Below the pieces are notes generated by a model that saw nothing but the letters and a program-made list of their open reading frames with translations, was not told where the DNA came from and searched no databases. A DNA stretch of 64,000 nucleotides from Sulfolobales archaeon (GTDB lineage: Archaea; Thermoproteota; Thermoprotei_A; Sulfolobales; NBVN01): assembly GCA_038841535.1 (NCBI GenBank), contig JAWBTQ010000003.1:64001-128000 (forward strand), given 5' to 3'. Of the stretch, positions 18,206-28,568 are shown one piece after another. Made by a program: the position numbers and the translations under genes. The stretch's first letter is position 1; each line of letters starts with the position of its first letter.

Positions 18206-18760
18206 GTGTTTTCAAATAGGGCGTTAAGTAAGATGATTAGCGTGCTGCGGACTAAAGGAGTTGATGGTGTTATAATTGGTAGTACCTCGATAGAGCTAGC
18301 TCTCAGGAGAGATAGTTTTGAGGGAGATATAGATCTGCTCGTGACTTCAGCGTCCGTGCTAGTAAATTATGGGGTACTGGAGGAATTGGCTAGAAGTCAT
18401 GGCTGTACGCTGGGGTCTACATGGCTCGGCACTCCAAGTATTACTTGCTTTATTGATGGTGAGGAAGTCACGGCAGACCTTTACGAAAATCTGCATGACT
18501 TCTACATACCTGACGAAATAGTGGAGAATGCTGTAGAGTACCAGGTTCTTGGAATTAAGGTAAGAGCTATAAAGCCAGAGGACTATGTAGTCCTTAAAGC
18601 TGTTGCTGGAAGGAACGAGGATCTAGAAGCATTAAGAAAGATCGGGGAGGCTATAAGAAGGCGGGAACTCAAGATAGATAGAAGGCTTGTAGAACTAAGG
18701 GTGGAACTCTTTAGTGAGAGGCGGTCTATACTTAGGAGGTTAAGCGAATACCTGTGGTAG
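18206..18760 (+). CDS. nucleotidyltransferase-fold protein
   Basis: IIGS...DIDL motif, LKAVAGRNEDLE. Confidence 0.8.
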   Translation: MFSNRALSKMISVLRTKGVDGVIIGSTSIELALRRDSFEGDIDLLVTSASVLVNYGVLEELARSHGCTLGSTWLGTPSITCFIDGEEVTADLYENLHDFYIPDEIVENAVEYQVLGIKVRAIKPEDYVVLKAVAGRNEDLEALRKIGEAIRRRELKIDRRLVELRVELFSERRSILRRLSEYLW

Positions 18761-19671: not shown

Positions 19672-19748
19672 TGGCGCCGGGGGGAGGACTCGAACCTCCG
19701 ACCACCGGGTTAACAGCCCGGCGCTCTACCTGGCTGAGCTACCCCGGC
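19672..19748 (-). tRNA. tRNA-Asn(GTT)
   Basis: Cloverleaf with anticodon arm CCGGG-CTGTTAA-CCCGG; CCA encoded. Confidence 0.97.
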
Positions 19749-19811: not shown

Positions 19812-21512
19812 TTAGTGCTCTAGCTTAATTAGTAAGGCCCTAGGATCTGGGGCTATTCTCACTATGGCATAGCCTCTACCAAGAGCTCTTGCTTTTTCAA
19901 TGCGTTCGCTACTGGCTTTGAGTAGCTTACTAATCTCTTCCCAGTACTCAGTGCTTGTTGATGGCAGAACTACGAGTAGGCCTAGGTTGTCTATTAGAGG
20001 TCCCAAAGTTCTGGTAAAGTCTCTTGCTGTTTGAGTAGCTAAAGCTACTACAGTCCCGAAACTCCTTCCCACTCTTATTAATTCCTCTACTAATTCTAGT
20101 GAACTCTCTCTAAGTATAGTCCACGCTTCGTCGACTACGATTACCCTACTGTAATCGGTTCTCTCAGGATGACTTATTGACGCGGTTTTCATCGCAACTG
20201 ATATGACCTTAAGTAGTAAGGGCATGAGTGATGGATCAATAGATAAGATAGATGAAACGTCTAATACGTTTACCCCAGCAGGCTCTTTAAGTAAGCTAAT
20301 CAATCCACGCCCACTACCAGAAACGGCGGCAAGTACGGATAGAACCTTACTAATGACGAATTCTGGGTATTCCTCTGAGCAGTACCTAGAGAATCTTCTT
20401 AGGGAGTTTACGAGCTCTATGTCTCCTCCTTCAGGAATTGCAGTGAGGTTGCTTAAGGCTACGTGAAGACACGAAAAAACATCCCTTCTGTTGAGTTCTC
20501 GGTGAGATGACATTACGTCTAGTAGCACTTCTGCTAAGTCTCTATTGAGGTTTTTGCGAACTGCTTTAAGTAATTCTACCAGCCCTATTGAAACATTTCT
20601 TCCTAGAGTATAGTATGCGACCTTTTTACCGTGAGACTCAAAGATCTTTTTATACTCGTTTTTCGGATCGAGTACGAGTATTCCAAGACCGACCCTATTT
20701 AGAGATAGAGCTAGTCCAGCAAGGAAAGTGGTCTTTCCGATACCAGTTGGCCCTACTACAAGTACGTGTGGAGATGCTGCTTCATTAAGGTTCCAGTAGA
20801 CTTCTTCTCCACTATCAAGATCTACTCCTAGCTTTATTCCGGAAGACCTTAGGGAAGGTTTTGCCCTCCCCAACAAAGGAATAAACGTAAACACCGGGAT
20901 AGAGATCAAGTCTGCTACTATGGTCTTCCTCCTAAGTCTGTCTGCAACCCTATAGAGCAGGCCGCGCTTTTGCCTGGATAGTCCGGCAAGTAGCATTCTA
21001 GAAAAAGCTTTCTCAGCATCAACTTCTTCTATGTCTACGCCCAACGTGTTCAGCGTACTCCTTAAGACCCTCATCCTAGTTTTTAATACCTCGAGGGAGC
21101 TTTGGAAGTCTTCACCGCAAGCCGAGACCGCAACATAGACTTCGGTCTCAAATGGCTGTAGAGAGTCCTTGAGAATCCTGCTTCTTATATACTTAGCTCT
21201 CTCAGCCTTTATCCTGCTATCAGCTTTAAGTGGATTGACTTCGTAAGCAACGGTGTTCTCAGCTATAATTCTTTCGAGGTTCTTTGCGAAAGCGAGTCTA
21301 TCAACGGGTTTAATGAAGGTGTGAAACTCTAAGGGAAAACCTAGGTTGAACGCATTAACGTAAGCCTTTATGTACTTTACTGAGGTGAAGTCGTCGAGAT
21401 CCTGTATAGCTGTACTTACGTTTGTTACTTTAGTAACTCTCTTAACACACACTCCTGAACTCTCACTATAGACCAAAAGTCCGTCTCTAAGCTCGTAAGT
21501 CTCGTGCTCCAT
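19812..21512 (-). CDS. VirB4/HerA-FtsK superfamily ATPase (CedB-like, DUF87)
   Basis: GIKLG...SPHVLVVGPTGIGKT Walker A, IVVDEAW Walker B, RVGRSFG..LATQ; VirB4-like N-terminal region. Confidence 0.85.
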   Translation of the reverse strand: MEHETYELRDGLLVYSESSGVCVKRVTKVTNVSTAIQDLDDFTSVKYIKAYVNAFNLGFPLEFHTFIKPVDRLAFAKNLERIIAENTVAYEVNPLKADSRIKAERAKYIRSRILKDSLQPFETEVYVAVSACGEDFQSSLEVLKTRMRVLRSTLNTLGVDIEEVDAEKAFSRMLLAGLSRQKRGLLYRVADRLRRKTIVADLISIPVFTFIPLLGRAKPSLRSSGIKLGVDLDSGEEVYWNLNEAASPHVLVVGPTGIGKTTFLAGLALSLNRVGLGILVLDPKNEYKKIFESHGKKVAYYTLGRNVSIGLVELLKAVRKNLNRDLAEVLLDVMSSHRELNRRDVFSCLHVALSNLTAIPEGGDIELVNSLRRFSRYCSEEYPEFVISKVLSVLAAVSGSGRGLISLLKEPAGVNVLDVSSILSIDPSLMPLLLKVISVAMKTASISHPERTDYSRVIVVDEAWTILRESSLELVEELIRVGRSFGTVVALATQTARDFTRTLGPLIDNLGLLVVLPSTSTEYWEEISKLLKASSERIEKARALGRGYAIVRIAPDPRALLIKLEH

Positions 21513-23568
21513 AAGCTGTTTCCCCCACATGATATCCCACTGACAAAGCCGCCTTTAGTGCTAACCAGACCACGTCTCTCCAGTCTAGGGCAACTCTACT
21601 AGTACCCAAGCTGACCGAGAACCCAGTCACTAAGTATATTGGCTCAAGCTTTTGTTCAAATACTTTTCTGCCATCCAAATAAATCGCGAGCACGTAATCA
21701 CCTTCGTGCTCAATTTTCACATACAACCTCTTGCTTGTAGCTACTTCGTACTTTATACAATCAGCGTAGAATCCTCCACTAGCTGCCCTATCTGAGTAAG
21801 CACCATAGAAACACTTTCGAATAGAGTCTCTAAATACTTTAGATGAATTTAACTCGAAGCTTTCATCATCTACTCTTATTACCTTAGTGAGCTCTAGCAG
21901 AGCTGGTTCCTCACAGTTTTCTACGAGAAGATAGTCGTATCCTTCAAACACGTTTCTGTTCAAGCAGAGCAACTTTAAGGAATGTCCTGGTGCCTTAATT
22001 ACACTTTTAGACTTGGTTTCAAACACTTCTATTCTCTCACTGTAGTCTCTTTCAACATCCTTAAACTCCCGAGGGTCTAGGTATACAGTAGCTATTTCTT
22101 CGGGATCAAATAACTCCGAGTTAACTACCAGCTTAACGAGTACTTCGTTCTTCTCCGAACACTTCCCAGAGAACTTTATGGAGACATCGTTTAAGCCGGG
22201 TTTAATGGTGTTGCTGCTGAGAACAACACTGCTTTCACTAACTCCAGATACTTCCGCCTTAATCGGTACCGGTATCGGAACACGACTAGTAATTTTTAGA
22301 TTAATTCGGCCAAGGCAATTATGGTTTACGTTACTCAGAAGTTTCCCGGACTTAGCTATAGCAAGAGATTTACTGACTACGTTATCTAACTCGAGCTTAC
22401 CGAACTTGACGTATTCTTCGACAGCCCTGTAGTACGTTGGGCACTCTACTGTGACTTTTAAGTATCCTTCCCACCCCAGGGTCTTCGGATATATCAATGC
22501 GCGAAGAACTCCGGCGACAACGCTCTGTTCCCAAACCGCGGTGAATCTTGGTGAAACAGAGAAGCGACACCCATCGAACCAGGGCTTGACAACGAGTTCA
22601 GCCAATCCCTCTCCACTACCTTCATTGCGAACTTTGACCTCCACCTCAGCAGGAGCTAGAGGATCTAGAAAAGTAACTAAGTCTTCAGTGAGGCAAGCAA
22701 CACCACTAGTGGTAGATACGCACGACCTAAGCAGGGGTGAGTCAAGTGCGAAGGAGACTCTATCATTCAAGATCTTAACGAGACCAGCACGGTTTACTAT
22801 CGAGACTACGTCCTTAAAGGAAGACACCTCCTTAACTGCCTCCTTTAAGACCGTAGTGTACGCACCGTACTTCACGACCTTAAGTCCCTCTCGGTCAGCA
22901 AGGACAATTCCGTCACTAACACATGCTGCTGAGACGACCTCACTCACCTTCCCGAGAACGTCGAGAACGCCGTTTCTCACTCTAACTAAAAACCCGTCGC
23001 GGTCAATTAGGTAATCACCAGTTGGACAGCTCACGATGAACCTGAAAAACCCAGGTATTAGCTCAATACCGTTGATCGATACTGAAAGTGTCAGCGACTT
23101 ATTACTAACGGAGAACCCCCCGAAGCCCGCGTTTATACCTAGACTTCGTATCTCGCGAGGATCTAGCCTCACTGAGTCTATTCCGTATATTCTAGTTACA
23201 CCGTCTACTACATCTAGTATTCCAGTTAAGCACTTACTCCTTTTACACGCTACTAAGTATATCATCGTTCCTAGCGTTCTAATGAAACCACTGCCCCGAA
23301 ATACTCTACCTCCAGCACTCAGTACCAGCTCCGAGTTTTCACGCTTGATCACTATATCTCTCAGCTTAAGTTCCGAAGCAGAGACGTCTAGAGATGCCGC
23401 TCGAATAGGTTCTCGACTTAGAACATAGAGATAGTAGTTATTGCCACTAAGAATCTTTAGTACTGGTTTACCTAGAGTGCTCCTAGTTAACTCTACTTCA
23501 TTTACGTCACTTAGTTCATCGAAGACTTTGTTTAGTCTTATTACACCGGTTACTGAAGGAACTATCAC
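21487..23568 (-). CDS. large beta-rich hypothetical protein in the pilus operon (possibly UpsX-like)
   Basis: 693 aa, no signal peptide or TM segment, beta-strand periodicity; overlaps both neighbours. Confidence 0.7.
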   Translation of the reverse strand: MIVPSVTGVIRLNKVFDELSDVNEVELTRSTLGKPVLKILSGNNYYLYVLSREPIRAASLDVSASELKLRDIVIKRENSELVLSAGGRVFRGSGFIRTLGTMIYLVACKRSKCLTGILDVVDGVTRIYGIDSVRLDPREIRSLGINAGFGGFSVSNKSLTLSVSINGIELIPGFFRFIVSCPTGDYLIDRDGFLVRVRNGVLDVLGKVSEVVSAACVSDGIVLADREGLKVVKYGAYTTVLKEAVKEVSSFKDVVSIVNRAGLVKILNDRVSFALDSPLLRSCVSTTSGVACLTEDLVTFLDPLAPAEVEVKVRNEGSGEGLAELVVKPWFDGCRFSVSPRFTAVWEQSVVAGVLRALIYPKTLGWEGYLKVTVECPTYYRAVEEYVKFGKLELDNVVSKSLAIAKSGKLLSNVNHNCLGRINLKITSRVPIPVPIKAEVSGVSESSVVLSSNTIKPGLNDVSIKFSGKCSEKNEVLVKLVVNSELFDPEEIATVYLDPREFKDVERDYSERIEVFETKSKSVIKAPGHSLKLLCLNRNVFEGYDYLLVENCEEPALLELTKVIRVDDESFELNSSKVFRDSIRKCFYGAYSDRAASGGFYADCIKYEVATSKRLYVKIEHEGDYVLAIYLDGRKVFEQKLEPIYLVTGFSVSLGTSRVALDWRDVVWLALKAALSVGYHVGETAYGARDLRA

Positions 23569-24995
23569 GGCGTAACACCTAGCGCGTAGAGCTCTAGTAG
23601 TACTAACCCCACTAGAGCGGTATTTTCCAGGGTGCCAAATGTAGTAAGAGTAGCGATAACACTATAGAAAAGTGATGATATAAAGCAGTAGGTCCTTATT
23701 TCACCACTTGCTAGACCTGTTGCTGCCACTAGAGAGGTTGAGAAGCTCAAAATAAGTGGTAGAAAGAGTGCTGTAGCTATCACTAGGAGTCTAACAGCAA
23801 TACTCTGCTTAACGAGAGAGAATAGTTCCTCGACTATGTCCTTAAATGCTATTATTCTAGTTGTATCTACACTTCCGTGCCTGATGGACCTTAAAAGCAT
23901 GTAGTAGCAGAGTGAGGTAAAGACGCTGCGGCTACGTAGATCGCCCAGACTCTTTTCTACTAGCTCTATAGGGCGGTGAGCATAAGGCACTCTATCTGCT
24001 AAGCTGATAAGCTGAGATGGTATAGATACGACTGATAGATAGGTAGCAACAAACCTTTGAGTTGCTACAGCCCCTAGAGCGAGGAACGTTGCTCCTGAAA
24101 ATACTAGTGAAGTCTTCACTCCAATCATCGGGGATAGTAAAAAGGGTAAAAATGCGGTAGTAAGTAAGTACCTAAGTTTTTTAGTTTCTACAGATATCTT
24201 CAATAGCCTGGGTGTTGCACTCTCAGATATGGCTAACGCAATTGCGGGTGCGGCCATAGTAATATAGGTGTACTGTACTTCGGAGCCAGTTAAAGCAATG
24301 ACTAGAGCTATCAGTGGGGGAGTCAAGCCGTTAAATACAGCAGCAGTCAAACTCAGGATAGTCTTAAGCTCTAGAGAGTTTTTTGCTGAAGTTTTAAGCT
24401 CGCGGAGAGACTCCTGAAACTTACTGTATATCCATGTACCAAAGTCGGCACTTTCGCGAGTCACTATGTACTCTAGCAGCAGCTTCCTCATCGGTTTCGG
24501 GGCTCTAAGCACGTACTCCTTGATACCCTTTATCCCGGGAAAGAACTTGAAGAATAGCTTGAGTCTCATGTACTCGTTACACATCGATGGCAGGAACCCG
24601 CAGGCATGCTCCGATTCTTCTTCTAGATCCCTCACTAAGTCATCACCGGGGCTCGCACCCTCCAGTACCATGAAGTAAGCTATGTCTTCCCGCAGGCTTT
24701 TCACGTAAGTAGCGTAGTACAGAAGCTCTACGGCTAGAGGTAGTAGAAAGAGCATAGACGCCGCAACGGGGATAGTAAAGAAGAAAAAGTAGGGGTTGTT
24801 TGAATGTTTTGAGGCAATATACGAGGCCAGCGCCAATCCAAGTGTGGGTACCGCAGATACTTTGAGTATATATAGAACTGCCTTATCAGCCTCAGCTTTG
24901 GGTTTTCCTCTAGCTATTCTCACTTTGTTTAGTAGCTCTAAGTATTCACCTAGAGCTCGACTAATATGAAGGATGGGCGAGCTACTTAAACCCAT
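23565..24995 (-). CDS. TadC/FlaJ-like pilus platform membrane protein
   Basis: Several TM helices in two clusters; directly follows the pilus ATPase. Confidence 0.7.
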   Translation of the reverse strand: MGLSSSPILHISRALGEYLELLNKVRIARGKPKAEADKAVLYILKVSAVPTLGLALASYIASKHSNNPYFFFFTIPVAASMLFLLPLAVELLYYATYVKSLREDIAYFMVLEGASPGDDLVRDLEEESEHACGFLPSMCNEYMRLKLFFKFFPGIKGIKEYVLRAPKPMRKLLLEYIVTRESADFGTWIYSKFQESLRELKTSAKNSLELKTILSLTAAVFNGLTPPLIALVIALTGSEVQYTYITMAAPAIALAISESATPRLLKISVETKKLRYLLTTAFLPFLLSPMIGVKTSLVFSGATFLALGAVATQRFVATYLSVVSIPSQLISLADRVPYAHRPIELVEKSLGDLRSRSVFTSLCYYMLLRSIRHGSVDTTRIIAFKDIVEELFSLVKQSIAVRLLVIATALFLPLILSFSTSLVAATGLASGEIRTYCFISSLFYSVIATLTTFGTLENTALVGLVLLELYALGVTP

Positions 24996-27499
24996 AGGTC
25001 TCTCGCTCTATTAAACCTCGTAAGAAGAGTCTCTAAGTCTAGGTCTTCCCCATATCTATAGACGGTATTAAGGACTAGAGAATTTGACCTCAGTACAGGT
25101 TCGTCGACTCTAACAACCACCCTCCTCAAGCCGCCGTCCTCTAGAAAACTTAGAGTGATAAACAACCAGATCATGGCAAGCTGTTGAGGTGCTAACTCTA
25201 TGGGGGGTGAAGTAAGTCTTACGATGGCTTCCTCGGGTGAGCCGGCATGGAACGTCGTATTATGGGTCAGTATCAAAGACCCGGAGATAGCGTAAAGGTG
25301 GGTTCCAGGTACTTCAACATCGTATAATAGGCTCTGTTTTTCGATGAAGTCCACTCTTTTAACTTTGAGCATACTCAGCTCGCTTTCCTTGCGACTTACT
25401 GTAGCCGGGAAGAGGTTCTCGTAGCTGTAGTGCTTTAATCCTAGTACTCTGAGAAGATTTTCTCTATCTTTCTCCTCTACAATGCAGATTTCGTATTTTT
25501 CTTCAGTACCTGGCTTGGGTGGCTCAATATACGATCGCACACCGAGAGTCTTAAGTACTAGGACTAGAGACTCAGCAAACTTTCTGCTCGGTGCGTACAT
25601 CTTAAAGGTTGCGTAACTCTCGTAGTCTAAACTTACTTTATCGCTTAAACCGTCGCAGTACCCTTCAATTAGGCCTACTCTGAACTCATTTCCGGACTCA
25701 AGGGCTATACCTAAAGGCACGTGCTTCATCTCAGCCTTTGAACTACCTGAAACGCCGACAAGCAGGACAGCTAGTGGCCGGTATTCTACGGTGACGTGAG
25801 TAACGCCCTTAGGCAAAGATCTAACGGTATTTACGACCTCGGAAGGAATACCTAGACTTGCTAGAGCCTCAAGTAGCTTAGTCAGCTTAGTTGATTCAAC
25901 ATCGAGGTGCACTAGCCAGGTGTTTCTTGTGAGATCTTTCTCCACGTAACCGGTCGCTAAGTATAGCCCAAGAACGTAACCCAGATTTCTATCTAGTTTA
26001 AACCGTTTAGATAGCTCCAATGATCCGGGCAACCGATTCACGCGTCTATCAGTCAGCTCAGATCTTCCTTCTGTGAACAACCCCGGATGGTGAAGGCCTT
26101 CAGTCACGTTTAGATCTTCATCTACAATTTCTGGCACCTCTATGAAGTCCCTTTCTTGAGTTGGCTTAGGGGGGTGAGGAAGAGATACGAGTAGATCTCC
26201 GGGGTTAAGGTCCTTAGCTTTCTTGAGAGTTAGACCTAAGTCGGTATCTGCTGCTACTACTAAATGATCTTCATGAACTTCATGTGTTACTCCATTCTCG
26301 ACTTCTATTCTGACGAACTTGTTGCTACCTCTCTTTGCGACTACTGCCGATACTGGCTGCCAGGTAGGTTCTAGATCGGCTCCGAGAGACACTACCTCGA
26401 CTCTCTTATGGCTACCCTTTAGTACCCCGTTCACTACCTCCCTGATCTCGTAAAGGCCGATCTTTCCGTCGATTTTAGCCAGCACTAGTTGATCTCCTGG
26501 AAGGCAGAGACCTCCTAGACCCATGTTCATTGCTTGAACTAGGACTCTAGCTTCAGCTCCTCTGGTTTCACCTATAACTAAGAATCTGCTGACAGACGCT
26601 CTTAACGCAGCTTTAGCTAAAGCCATCTGGTCTATCCCTCTAGTAGAACCCCAGACGTCAGTTGGAACAGCATACCTAACCCAGCTGGAGCCCTTAGGTA
26701 CGTCTACCTCTGGGGTGTCCTCGATTATCGCTATTTTCCAATACCTAGGAATAGCTGAGTAAAGTATGGCCTTAAGTAAGGTAGTCTTACCAGAACCCGG
26801 TGGTCCAAGAATAACTATAGATCCTCCCTTTCTAACGACGAGCTTTATTAGCTCAGCTACAGAGCTCGGCATTACTTTGGCCTTAACTAGGGCATCGAGG
26901 TCTACAAAGCCGTGATAAAGCTTTTTCCTAATGACTAGTTCTCCGGTTGAATGAGCAACATCAGGTAGAACCAAGTGTACTCTATGACCACCGTCTTCCT
27001 CAGGTAAAGTAAAGTCCATTATTGGTATTCTCCTGTTGACTACCCTCCCAGAACGCTCAGCAGCAAGCTCCATATAGCTCACTAGTTCTTCGTAAGTAGC
27101 TACAACTATGTTGGTTTCAATGTAATCTGCTGATGGATCCTTCTCAAGTACGTACTTGTGTCTAACCCATACAGGACCCGTGCCAACGATCGATACGTCC
27201 TCTACGTAGGGGTCGTCTAAGAGCACCTGAAGCTTCTTATACTTGAGCTCCCGACTTACTACGTATGTAACGAGTTCTGGGTCGTAGTCCTTGAGGTATG
27301 TGAGTACTGCTTTAGCGACATCATAAATACTTACACTTTTCTGAGGGCCTACGAACTCTAGAGCTTTACCTACTAGTCTGGCTATAGTTTCATATTTTTC
27401 TGGGTCGATATCGTTAACTAGGTAGTAGTAGTTTCCGGAAAGGTCTTTGACTATACTAATAGAAGAAAGTCCTACGTTATAGCTAAGTAAAACCTCCAA
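24986..27499 (-). CDS. type II/IV secretion (pilus assembly) ATPase containing an intein
   Basis: LLDDPYVEDVSI, GPPGSGKTT, IEDTPE, IGETRG.EA, AMNMG...TTFHA split by the intein. Confidence 0.92.
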   Translation of the reverse strand: MEVLLSYNVGLSSISIVKDLSGNYYYLVNDIDPEKYETIARLVGKALEFVGPQKSVSIYDVAKAVLTYLKDYDPELVTYVVSRELKYKKLQVLLDDPYVEDVSIVGTGPVWVRHKYVLEKDPSADYIETNIVVATYEELVSYMELAAERSGRVVNRRIPIMDFTLPEEDGGHRVHLVLPDVAHSTGELVIRKKLYHGFVDLDALVKAKVMPSSVAELIKLVVRKGGSIVILGPPGSGKTTLLKAILYSAIPRYWKIAIIEDTPEVDVPKGSSWVRYAVPTDVWGSTRGIDQMALAKAALRASVSRFLVIGETRGAEARVLVQAMNMGLGGLCLPGDQLVLAKIDGKIGLYEIREVVNGVLKGSHKRVEVVSLGADLEPTWQPVSAVVAKRGSNKFVRIEVENGVTHEVHEDHLVVAADTDLGLTLKKAKDLNPGDLLVSLPHPPKPTQERDFIEVPEIVDEDLNVTEGLHHPGLFTEGRSELTDRRVNRLPGSLELSKRFKLDRNLGYVLGLYLATGYVEKDLTRNTWLVHLDVESTKLTKLLEALASLGIPSEVVNTVRSLPKGVTHVTVEYRPLAVLLVGVSGSSKAEMKHVPLGIALESGNEFRVGLIEGYCDGLSDKVSLDYESYATFKMYAPSRKFAESLVLVLKTLGVRSYIEPPKPGTEEKYEICIVEEKDRENLLRVLGLKHYSYENLFPATVSRKESELSMLKVKRVDFIEKQSLLYDVEVPGTHLYAISGSLILTHNTTFHAGSPEEAIVRLTSPPIELAPQQLAMIWLFITLSFLEDGGLRRVVVRVDEPVLRSNSLVLNTVYRYGEDLDLETLLTRFNRARDLWV
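25259..26506 (-). mobile_element. intein (416 aa) with LAGLIDADG-like endonuclease region
   Basis: Begins CLPGDQLV, block B HEDH, LYDVEVPGTH...THN end followed by extein Thr; LGYVLGLYLATG and GLIEGYCDG blocks. Confidence 0.93.
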
Positions 27500-27537
27500 T
27501 GAAAAACACCTTGAGTATTTCGAGTTAGAGAACTTGT

Positions 27538-27999
27538 TTACCCTAAGTTTATCGGTATTTCTATCTGTTTATTAGTGGCTACCTCACTCGCTACTACTAT
27601 AAGACCCCTGACTCTAGTAGTCCCACTAGAAACAGCTATAACGAAGATCTTTTCACTACCTGGCTCTAGGGTCACCTGCTCATTACTTAACGCATTGCGT
27701 GCCTCGACTACGGTTCCATTTGTTAATATAGCCTTAAACTCAGTCACTTTGTATGATGTCTGACCTTGGTTTCGTAGACCGACCGTGATAACTTCTTCAC
27801 CGTTAGTGTAGGTTCTGCTGACTAGATACCCACTAAGAGGCTGAACTATGTTCATGTTTTCAAGACTTCCCGCTCTACTGGACAACCAGCCTTGGACCAC
27901 CATTACTATAGGGATCACTATAGCAACCAAGGCTAGTATAATCACCAACTCACTTATTCCCCTCCTCAACTTTTTACGTACCAACATGTCGGCTCCCAA
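27538..27999 (-). CDS. archaeal type IV pilin (class III signal peptide)
   Basis: RKKLRRG|ISELVIILALVAIVIPIV cleavage motif and hydrophobic helix, then a beta-sandwich. Confidence 0.9.
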   Translation of the reverse strand: MGADMLVRKKLRRGISELVIILALVAIVIPIVMVVQGWLSSRAGSLENMNIVQPLSGYLVSRTYTNGEEVITVGLRNQGQTSYKVTEFKAILTNGTVVEARNALSNEQVTLEPGSEKIFVIAVSSGTTRVRGLIVVASEVATNKQIEIPINLG

Positions 28000-28259
28000 T
28001 AGGAAACCTCCTTAAAAAGTGTCTCAGCACCGATCAGTATTAGCCTTCGTCTATAATATCCTAATAATAGGGCGGTACTAACAGGGCCTGTAACCAGGTT
28101 GATTCACATAGACAATCAAGAGGTAGATATTGACATAAATACTGATTCCCCCTATTCTATTATTCTCCATAGATTAGATTGTCTCGACGGTAGATGCGAT
28201 ACCTGATTGATCTTACTACTTAAAAGTATGCCGTATTTAAAGGTAACTAAGGGTCTGAC

Positions 28260-28568
28260 ATGAATAGGGTTAAAAAACTGTTAGATAGCATGTACGCAAA
28301 GCTTTTCACTCCTGGAGATATAGTGGCAGCTACAGGATTACCTAGGTACGAAGTTCTTGCTGCTTTACACGTCCTAGAAGAACTCGGAATTATAGAGCTC
28401 GTGATATCTAAAGGAAACTATAAGGTGTATCGGCTAACTAAACTCGGTGAGAAGCTGTATAAAGCTCTTGAGTTAAGCGAAAGCCCCCTACTGAGTGTAG
28501 AGCTTAGTGCAGGAGCTCCTCAAGGAGAAAACAGCTCCGCGAGCTTAGTAACAGAAAGTAGTAGCTGA
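28260..28568 (+). CDS. winged helix-turn-helix protein, divergent from the pilus operon
   Basis: TPGDIVAATGLPRYEV...LEELGII...YRLTKLG wHTH pattern. Confidence 0.85.
   Translation: MNRVKKLLDSMYAKLFTPGDIVAATGLPRYEVLAALHVLEELGIIELVISKGNYKVYRLTKLGEKLYKALELSESPLLSVELSAGAPQGENSSASLVTESSS

Follow-up and report, generated by a model that had tools for sequence, protein, structure and literature searches.

A CedB-like ATPase gene and a putative UpsX relative within a type IV pilus operon of a Sulfolobales archaeon

For hyperthermophilic archaea, chromosomal DNA exchange has been described in Sulfolobus, in which the contact pilus (Ups) and the DNA importer (Ced) are encoded apart. To our knowledge, UpsX of the Ups system has had neither an assigned role nor relatives since 2013. 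Deletion of upsX in Sulfolobus is reported to leave pili and aggregation in place and to reduce DNA transfer, and UpsX is described as moving partly to the membrane after ultraviolet (UV) irradiation (PMC3892339; corrigendum, PMC5221435). The Ups pilus genes were stated in 2025 to be absent from other Crenarchaea (PMC11868833). The present analysis concerns a stretch of 64,000 nucleotides (nt) from a Sulfolobales archaeon, hereafter the window, which corresponds to contig C3:64001-128000 of the source assembly G000 (GCA_038841535.1, contig JAWBTQ010000003.1; 1.56 Mb, 40 contigs, 84% complete). Positions 19812-28568 of the window carry a type IV pilus operon whose last gene encodes a CedB-like ATPase. 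Judged from sequence comparison, this is probably an Ups-like pilus operon that also holds the CedB of its lineage, which would act with cedA1, cedA and a cedD-like gene located elsewhere in the genome.

The features of the operon were assigned as follows (window coordinates, strand, product with its length in amino acids (aa), and basis of the assignment).

19812-21530, minus strand: CedB-like ATPase of the HerA/VirB4 family, 572 aa (566 aa from the second ATG, 21512); NCBIfam and tree.
21487-23568, minus strand: UpsX-like protein, 693 aa; profile-profile comparison and AlphaFold2 model.
23565-24995, minus strand: polytopic, all-helical membrane protein, 476 aa, presumed platform (UpsF/FlaJ/TadC role); position and topology.
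24986-27499, minus strand: pilus assembly ATPase of the FlaI/T2SSE family, 837 aa, interrupted by an intein; Pfam and NCBIfam.
25241-26506, minus strand: LAGLIDADG intein, 422 aa, residues 332-753 of the ATPase; Pfam, NCBIfam and alignment.
27538-27999, minus strand: prepilin with a class III signal-peptide-like N-terminus, 153 aa from a TTG start, the likelier start being ATG 27987; sequence pattern.
28000-28259, no strand: divergent intergenic region between the pilin and winged helix-turn-helix (wHTH) genes, 260 nt; sequence reading.
28260-28568, plus strand: SSO5209-family winged-helix protein, 102 aa; NCBIfam.

The five minus-strand genes run in the order pilin, pilus ATPase, membrane protein, 693-aa protein and CedB-like ATPase, and the wHTH gene is divergent from them. 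The pilin gene is separated from the ATPase gene by 38 nt, and the last four genes overlap by 10, 4 and 44 nt in gene order. The last overlap, between the 693-aa and CedB-like genes, is 26 nt when the CedB-like protein starts at its second ATG, which agrees with the 566-aa form in the database. A preliminary description of the window, made from the letters alone, had given the same co-oriented layout, gap, overlaps and divergent gene, and the coordinates of the open reading frames (ORFs) agree with it.

The best NCBIfam family of the 572-aa protein was CedB (6.6e-51, 173.6 bits), aligned from residue 10 to 571 against positions 59-587 of the 590-position model, and Pfam gave matches to DUF87/HerA-central (2.3e-13) and AAA_10 (7.2e-12). 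A profile search of the genome revealed this protein as the single strong CedB match (173.9 bits), the next best reaching 35.7 bits. The columns of Walker A (GxxGxGKT; G260, G263, G265, K266 and T267) and Walker B (D467 and E468) were invariant among 14 homologues. The protein could be set apart from housekeeping HerA, since the best HerA-type model reached 35.6 bits against a cut-off of 800, and no nurA, mre11 or rad50 was present among the neighbouring genes. Likewise, the bacterial-type VirB4/TraC/TrbE model TIGR00929 gave 38.1 bits against a cut-off of 643, and no VirB6, VirB8 or relaxase gene was seen in the neighbourhood.

The phylogenetic position of the ATPase was evaluated within an order-wide survey of 201 genomes, whose families carry labels such as f1 and f13. 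The window belongs to f1, and its host lies outside the Sulfolobaceae, in keeping with the earlier reading of a non-Sulfolobus crenarchaeon; f13 was taken as Sulfolobaceae, the control genome that passes the CedB cut-off being Sulfolobus acidocaldarius. A careful tree of 44 CedB and CedD proteins (LG+G4, midpoint root; several rows with deviant amino-acid composition) split the operon-linked proteins of f1, f3, f6 and f4 together with Sulfolobaceae CedB from the cedA-linked CedB of f7, f12, f10, f2 and f9 together with CedD. This split received an ultrafast bootstrap of 100, an approximate likelihood ratio (SH-aLRT) support of 99 and 100% of 200 bootstrap trees. The name CedB seems to cover two lineages, one cedA-linked and one UpsX-linked, which matters for the annotation and the evolution of Ced. 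The earlier naming of the last gene as VirB4/CedB-like, and not a housekeeping HerA, is borne out by the best NCBIfam family, by the grouping with Sulfolobaceae CedB, and by the scores, 173.6 bits for CedB and no more than 35.6 bits for any HerA model.

Hydrophobic segments in the first 190 residues were found in none of 12 operon-linked CedB-like proteins, the window's included, whereas four of five Sulfolobaceae CedB proteins had such segments at residues 1 and 23. The N-terminal membrane helices are described as lacking in the CedB of some organisms (PMC11823120). In f4 and f6, the CedB-like gene was split into an N-terminal ORF of approximately 190 aa and an ATPase ORF of approximately 380 aa. 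Taken over the whole of these comparisons, the ATPase is most likely the single CedB orthologue of this lineage.

The remaining Ced genes could be located elsewhere in the same genome. NCBIfam identified cedA1 (119.6 bits, passing the cut-off of 100) and cedA (152.6 bits) at G000:C4:33580-35185, and no ATPase gene adjoined the pair on contig C4. A CedD-like ATPase of 545 aa was found at G000:C3:48858-50495, approximately 13.5 kb before the start of the window, with 72.8 bits against NCBIfam CedD (cut-off 600) and about six N-terminal hydrophobic segments, consistent with a membrane-anchored protein. In two genomes, cedA and the CedB-like gene occurred on one contig, at distances of 72 and 205 kb. 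The lack of cedA in the window had been noted before and was confirmed, as the only cedA matches of the genome sit on another contig. It had further been proposed that the ATPase might be partnered by the pilus platform and not by a CedA channel; the genome-wide search, which found cedA1, cedA and the CedD-like gene, gave this no support. As the genome has these genes at other sites, an ordinary Ced importer is most likely what the ATPase serves, and not a machine devoid of CedA.

A second type IV pilus cluster was found on the same contig as cedA1-cedA, at G000:C4:24646-28520. It lies approximately 5 kb from the pair, with RFC and Orc1/Cdc6-like genes between. Besides an ATPase nearer to UpsE, the cluster encodes a polytopic protein of 590 aa and a pilin-like protein of 167 aa.

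Another kind of linkage between a pilin and Ced was seen at L034:4776-10563 (G035, family f12). There, a pilin-like gene of 125 aa with a weak UpsB match (24 bits) and the gene of a 608-aa protein that has a hydrophobic segment at its N-terminus come directly before cedA-cedB; no cedA1 match was seen at that locus.

The 693-aa protein encoded directly upstream of the CedB-like gene had no Pfam or NCBIfam match, and neither a signal peptide nor a membrane segment was detected in it. Its AlphaFold2 model, with a mean predicted local distance difference test score (pLDDT) of 82.8, revealed an N-terminal beta-propeller (approximately residues 1-300), beta-sandwich domains and a C-terminal helix (663-686). 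The protein had been called beta-rich beforehand, and the model is indeed all-beta apart from that one helix. Foldseek comparison of the model against the PDB returned generic beta-propellers only (DDB1, IFT-A and ROS1; TM-scores of 0.12-0.27), as did the fold search of the ESM Atlas.

A profile search among 1.84 billion proteins showed the 693-aa family to be small, with 38 representatives. Among the weak matches to its profile, two also hit NCBIfam UpsX (P0062 with 477 bits and P0056 with 45 bits), and P0056 and L050 could be recognized as bridging sequences that match both the 693-aa and the UpsX profiles. An UpsX profile was built from six sequences, five from Sulfolobaceae genomes and P0062; hhalign comparison of the 693-aa family against it gave a probability of 96.8% and an E-value of 2.7e-10 over 317 columns. 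The comparison was repeated without the 806-aa ORF of L035 (Ignisphaera-type), because this row had been added by position alone and had no significant match to the family profile, and the probability remained at 96.7%. The family profile also picked up UpsX ORFs when run on the Sulfolobaceae, in 3 of the 26 genomes. Profile evidence of this kind indicates that the 693-aa protein is probably a remote homologue of UpsX, in the sense of homology and not of orthology. The L035 ORF occupies the UpsX-like position. Complex prediction of the 693-aa protein with residues 1-230 of the CedB-like protein gave a score of 0.00 (mark 0.32) and counts neither way.

The arrangement of these genes was conserved well beyond the window. 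In each of the 16 loci from f1 and f3, the CedB-like gene came immediately after the UpsX-like gene (14 by BLAST and 2 by position). All 13 loci with enough flanking sequence carried the pilin, ATPase, membrane protein, UpsX-like and CedB-like genes; among them, the membrane protein was assigned by BLAST in 12 and by position in L027, and the UpsX-like protein by BLAST in 11 and by position in L026 and L027. Three further loci, cut by contig ends, still had the UpsX-like gene adjoining the CedB-like gene. The same operon with CedB split in two was present in 3 of 3 loci of f6, and one f4 locus also had the operon. It spans at least 12 genera of one family and three other families, and the protein tree largely follows these groups. 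Because it recurs across genera, the gene arrangement is not a matter of chance. The synteny survey suggested in the preliminary description therefore returned a linkage to the pilus genes that is kept in relatives, across genera and four families.

Comparison of the CedB loci revealed three contexts: stand-alone in the Sulfolobaceae, after cedA1-cedA in f7, f12, f10, f2 and f9, and within the pilus operon in f1, f3, f6 and one genus of f4. In the second context, cedB directly followed cedA in 12 of 12 loci, with cedA1 also present in 11, and in 6 Sulfolobaceae loci cedB stood alone among metabolic genes. Most f4 genomes carried the wHTH gene, an ORF of approximately 800 aa at the UpsX-like position and the split CedB, without adjoining pilus genes; no pilin, ATPase or platform gene adjoined in five f4 loci (L035 and L051-L054). 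The gene at the UpsX position in f4 was recognizable as UpsX-like in some genomes only.

Matches to the 693-aa profile were obtained in 38 of 201 genomes of the order. By coordinates, the UpsX-like match adjoined the CedB match in 31 of the 32 profile-matching genomes of f1, f3, f4 and f6. Among 45 loci of titled public records, the CedB-like gene directly followed the UpsX-like gene in 37, and the membrane protein was found as well in 31; Zestosphaera tikiterensis NZ3 and Desulfurococcaceae archaeon AG1 are among the record titles of the UpsX-like/CedB-like loci. CedA was present in 42 of 52 genomes of the window's family and in every genus except g11. In that genus (for example G019, G094 and G103; genomes 81-99% complete), CedB was found in 0 of 6, the UpsX-like profile match in 0 of 6 and CedA in 0 of 10, and the whole set of DNA-exchange genes seems to be missing from it.

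The pilin begins with MLVRKKLRRG/ISELVIILALVAIVIPIV, and direct reading of KKLRRG/ISELV followed by a hydrophobic stretch reveals a class III signal-peptide-like N-terminus. A pattern of K/R-G, then (V/I/L)(S/N)(D/E)L, then a hydrophobic helix was conserved in pilin homologues of at least 11 loci. The pilin matched no Pfam or NCBIfam family, and the UpsA/UpsB models gave no match at E <= 0.01.

The pilus ATPase matched T2SSE in Pfam (1.4e-12) and, in NCBIfam, FlaI (2e-37), BasE (1.9e-28), the TadA type (3.1e-28) and VirB11 (1.2e-20). Its length of 837 aa is due to an inserted intein of 422 aa, a feature that the preliminary description had passed over. Intein matches were obtained for Intein_splicing (2.5e-9) and LAGLIDADG_3 in Pfam and for intein_Nterm in NCBIfam at residues 332-414. 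Alignment with intein-less orthologues gave the junction GLGGL / C...THN / TTFHAG, at a conserved site of the ATPase; the intein starts with Cys and ends with His-Asn, and an extein Thr follows. Of the 13 operon ATPases covered over their full length, 4 contained inteins, namely in the window's genus (the window, L016 and L017) and in one other genus (L023). In a quick tree, the 12 operon ATPases included formed a clade of their own (SH-aLRT 100), apart from UpsE, BasE, FlaI and the Aap-like group. The operon ATPases scored higher on FlaI than on BasE, and the reverse was true of UpsE. The UpsE rows of G164 and G186 in this tree were raw open frames, and their positions were given no weight because they lie on very long branches.

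The 476-aa protein is encoded directly after the ATPase, by a gene that overlaps both of its neighbours. Its AlphaFold2 model is all-helical (pLDDT 81.3), and hydrophobic segments are present, numbering 7-9 in homologues. The comparison by hhalign with one UpsF gave a weak match (probability 76.9%, E-value 2.1e-5, 212 columns). By its position, its topology and this weak UpsF profile match, it is presumed to be the pilus platform. The earlier term TadC-like stands as far as the polytopic, all-helical nature and the fitting position are concerned, and gains no support from Pfam, whose T2SSF/TadC model matches none of 15 members of the 476-aa family.

The 102-aa protein of the divergent gene matched NCBIfam SSO5209_fam (7.6e-23, 80 bits; residues 1-72 against positions 1-72 of 81) and MarR_2 weakly. 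The score is under the cut-off of the SSO5209 family (NF053658), 80 vs 140 bits, and a profile of its homologues recovers SSO5209 members of the Sulfolobaceae at 1e-27 and 2e-29. Of the 13 complete loci, 12 had the wHTH gene next to that of the pilin. In three of five Sulfolobaceae genomes, SSO5209 members above the cut-off occurred in the ups neighbourhood, 2-4.5 kb from upsX, in one genome directly after upsB and one further gene; of the other two genomes, the fourth gave no match and the fifth only a weak match elsewhere. At L095 (G164) and L073/L084 (G186), upsX and a shortened upsE were followed by the SSO5209-family gene no more than about 2 kb from the end of upsX, with no upsF, upsA or upsB between them at L095; the literature reports likewise for Acidianus.

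A TATA-like TTTTTAA element was found approximately 13-19 nt upstream of the pilin TTG (approximately 25-31 nt from ATG 27987), and an element of the form (c)acTTTATAA / TTTAAAA / TTTTTAA recurred at equal distance in homologous loci. It may be taken as a putative promoter-type TATA box. In one metatranscriptome run (X13), short contigs of 95-99% likeness fell on all six genes, with parts of the operon uncovered; they are a weak hint of expression and no proof of transcription, and are silent on strand and co-transcription. One low-depth contig of the RNA library joins position 23379 back to 22289 within the UpsX-like gene and is probably an assembly artefact. DNA runs containing the matching stretch carry the label hot springs metagenome.

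A working of the operon can be proposed in which every functional step is carried over from the Sulfolobus systems onto the gene content, homologies, phylogeny, synteny and presence/absence pattern observed here. All genes of the operon would be turned on together, and the wHTH protein may be the switch. The pilus ATPase, once its intein had been spliced out, would assemble the processed pilin on the platform, and the resulting pili would join cells of the same kind. A soluble CedB hexamer would then join the CedA1/CedA channel and the membrane-anchored CedD-like ATPase, and DNA would be pulled in. The cytoplasmic UpsX-like beta-propeller protein may act at the DNA-transfer step and not in pilus assembly; its action at the CedB step is suggested because the UpsX-like/CedB adjacency persists without pilus genes in f4 and because of the upsX phenotype of Sulfolobus.

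Several observations weigh against reading the locus as an Ups-like operon with the lineage's CedB. The CedB-like protein is under the NCBIfam CedB cut-off, 173.6 vs 700 bits, where 700 bits is the equivalog cut-off of the model (NF041017, DNA import protein CedB). This cut-off was passed only in the Sulfolobaceae, in 26 of 201 genomes of the order (26/26 in f13), and the cedA-adjoining CedB proteins of other families are likewise under it (67-220 bits). An alternative grouping of cedA-linked with Sulfolobaceae CedB, named after the tree had been seen, was not rejected by the approximately unbiased test (p = 0.060, log-likelihood difference 25.3). The pilus ATPase is, by its clade and scores, not an UpsE orthologue; the ATPase of the C4 cluster matches UpsE with 214 bits vs 100 bits for the window's, and that cluster may be the true Ups counterpart. 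The NCBIfam UpsX model gave no match to the 693-aa protein at E <= 0.01, so that the link is at profile level only. Pfam T2SSF matched 0 of 15 members of the 476-aa family, and PDB searches with the 476-aa protein gave no sequence match and no fold match at E <= 0.001. The UV-promoter motif of S. acidocaldarius, A(N)TTTC, was absent upstream of the window's pilin gene and not conserved upstream of the homologous pilin genes. The joint absence in g11 amounts to a single event in a single lineage.

The immediate surroundings of the operon comprise two further features.

19672-19748, minus strand: tRNA-Asn(GTT) gene, 63 nt past the stop of the CedB-like gene.
18206-18760, plus strand: DUF2204 nucleotidyltransferase, 184 aa; Pfam 1.4e-53.

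The DUF2204 gene is placed between the tRNA-Asn and NusA-like genes. It was considered as a counterpart of the 182-aa gene that adjoins ups and was rejected, as no similarity was found between the two. The flanking genes are of housekeeping type (aspartyl-tRNA synthetase, NusA-like factor, the tRNA thiolation protein NcsA and RLI/ABCE1), and the G+C content is flat over the region (0.43-0.46).

Other explanations of the locus can be weighed against these data. It is conceivable, at a distinctly tentative level, that Ups and Ced are halves of one ancestral module and that the UpsX-family propeller is an adaptor docking the anchor-less CedB hexamer at the membrane, either on the platform or on the CedA channel. 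In such a history, the lineages nearest the Sulfolobaceae would still keep mating-pilus genes, UpsX, CedB and the wHTH regulator in one operon, and the adaptor would couple cell contact to DNA import and account for the Sulfolobus upsX phenotype. A single hybrid pilus-coupled DNA translocator, in which the traffic ATPase would take the VirB11 role beside a VirB4-like CedB and a VirD4-like CedD, with the pilus taking part in DNA passage, is unlikely. Such a translocator, made up of the pilus ATPase, platform protein, pilin, UpsX-like protein and CedB, is in essence what the preliminary description had put forward. The overlap of the last four genes does suggest coupled translation, and the pilus ATPase scores 74-99 bits on VirB11, TrbB and TadA-type conjugal ATPase models; moreover, the available parts of PMC11868833 and PMC11823120 mention no VirB11-type Ced component, and the operon-linked CedB, being without a membrane anchor of its own, needs a docking partner of some kind. 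Yet the genome keeps a complete CedA1/CedA channel and a pilin set elsewhere, and the five f4 loci retain the UpsX-position gene, the split CedB and the wHTH gene without adjoining pilus genes. Ups pili of Sulfolobus are also reported not to carry DNA (PMC11823120).

The CedB-like ATPase might instead serve the pilus and not DNA, as a second motor, for example in retraction, or in the export or placement of the 693-aa protein, so that its likeness to CedB would reflect descent only. The CedB-like ATPase is, however, the sole candidate for CedB in genomes with cedA1, cedA and a cedD-like gene retained, the tree groups it with the experimentally studied CedB lineage, its gene is missing together with cedA in g11, and it persists in f4 where the pilus genes are gone. 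Such a pilus motor thus appears quite unlikely, even with the gene lying inside the pilus operon and never adjoining cedA in the window's family, a score under the CedB cut-off, and the statement that Archaea are without a PilT-type retraction ATPase (PMC4858521). Far less probable still is that the cluster belongs to an integrated conjugative or mobile element inserted at the neighbouring tRNA-Asn gene. The tRNA gene is only 63 nt away and the union of VirB4-like and VirB11-like ATPases is typical of conjugative elements, but the flanks are housekeeping genes of flat G+C, no integrase was seen among the ORFs scanned between window positions 15.9 and 32.3 kb, and the cluster occurs in at least 12 genera of one family and three others with a tree that largely follows these groups. 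The Ups-like operon that also holds CedB accordingly remains the favoured reading.

What appears to be undescribed is the union of Ups-like and Ced parts in one operon, together with UpsX and SSO5209 relatives outside the Sulfolobaceae. In the published literature no account could be found of cedB within a pilus operon, the clade 4A locus tables and the 2016 Ced paper lying outside the search, and none of UpsX or SSO5209 relatives outside the Sulfolobaceae. The idea of an undescribed exchange machine, raised from the window alone, therefore holds in part: the parts themselves correspond to the characterized Ups-like and Ced systems, and it is their union that appears to be new. The UpsX-like gene overlaps the CedB gene, and this arrangement is kept despite the loss of pilus genes, which yields a testable hypothesis of cooperation between UpsX and CedB. 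The operon links two DNA-exchange systems and offers candidate organisms for testing the UpsX-CedB link.

Among the known systems, the Ted system of Thermoproteales (TedA, TedB, TedC and TedD) is comparable as a type IV secretion-derived apparatus of chromosomal DNA exchange with clustered ATPase genes (PMC9905601 and PMC11823120). It differs in having a bona fide VirB4 clustered with VirB6-like and VirB2-like genes and not with a type IV pilus. The pilus loci of Desulfurococcales clade 4A resemble the operon in their extra, untraceable components after the platform gene (PMC4858521), and according to a 2026 survey the subsystem 4A accessory genes also lie downstream of that gene (PMC13705601). 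These extras were proposed to be minor pilins (PMC4858521), whereas the additional genes of the window's operon encode a probable cytoplasmic UpsX homologue and CedB; the genes of the window's operon may already be listed in the clade 4A locus tables of that paper.

The Ups system (upsX-upsE-upsF-upsA-upsB) shares with the operon a type IV pilus core, a large cytoplasmic protein that is probably homologous to UpsX in the operon, and a nearby SSO5209-family wHTH gene, as well as, by homology, a link to DNA exchange. In contrast to Ups, the order in the window is pilin, ATPase, platform, UpsX-like and CedB, and the ATPase belongs to another clade than UpsE. One pilin gene is present instead of two, with no UpsA/UpsB match, and the similarity to UpsX is at profile level only. 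Genes for endonuclease III, a ParB-like protein and a glycosyltransferase adjoin ups, and none was seen beside the window's operon. From the Ced system (CedA, CedA1, CedA2 and CedB, later CedD and CedE), the locus differs in that a pilus operon ends with cedB and that the CedB-like protein is without the two N-terminal membrane helices. It resembles Ced in that the genome holds cedA1, cedA, a CedD-like gene and one CedB-like gene, whose product aligns over its full length with the CedB model and groups with the CedB of the Sulfolobaceae.

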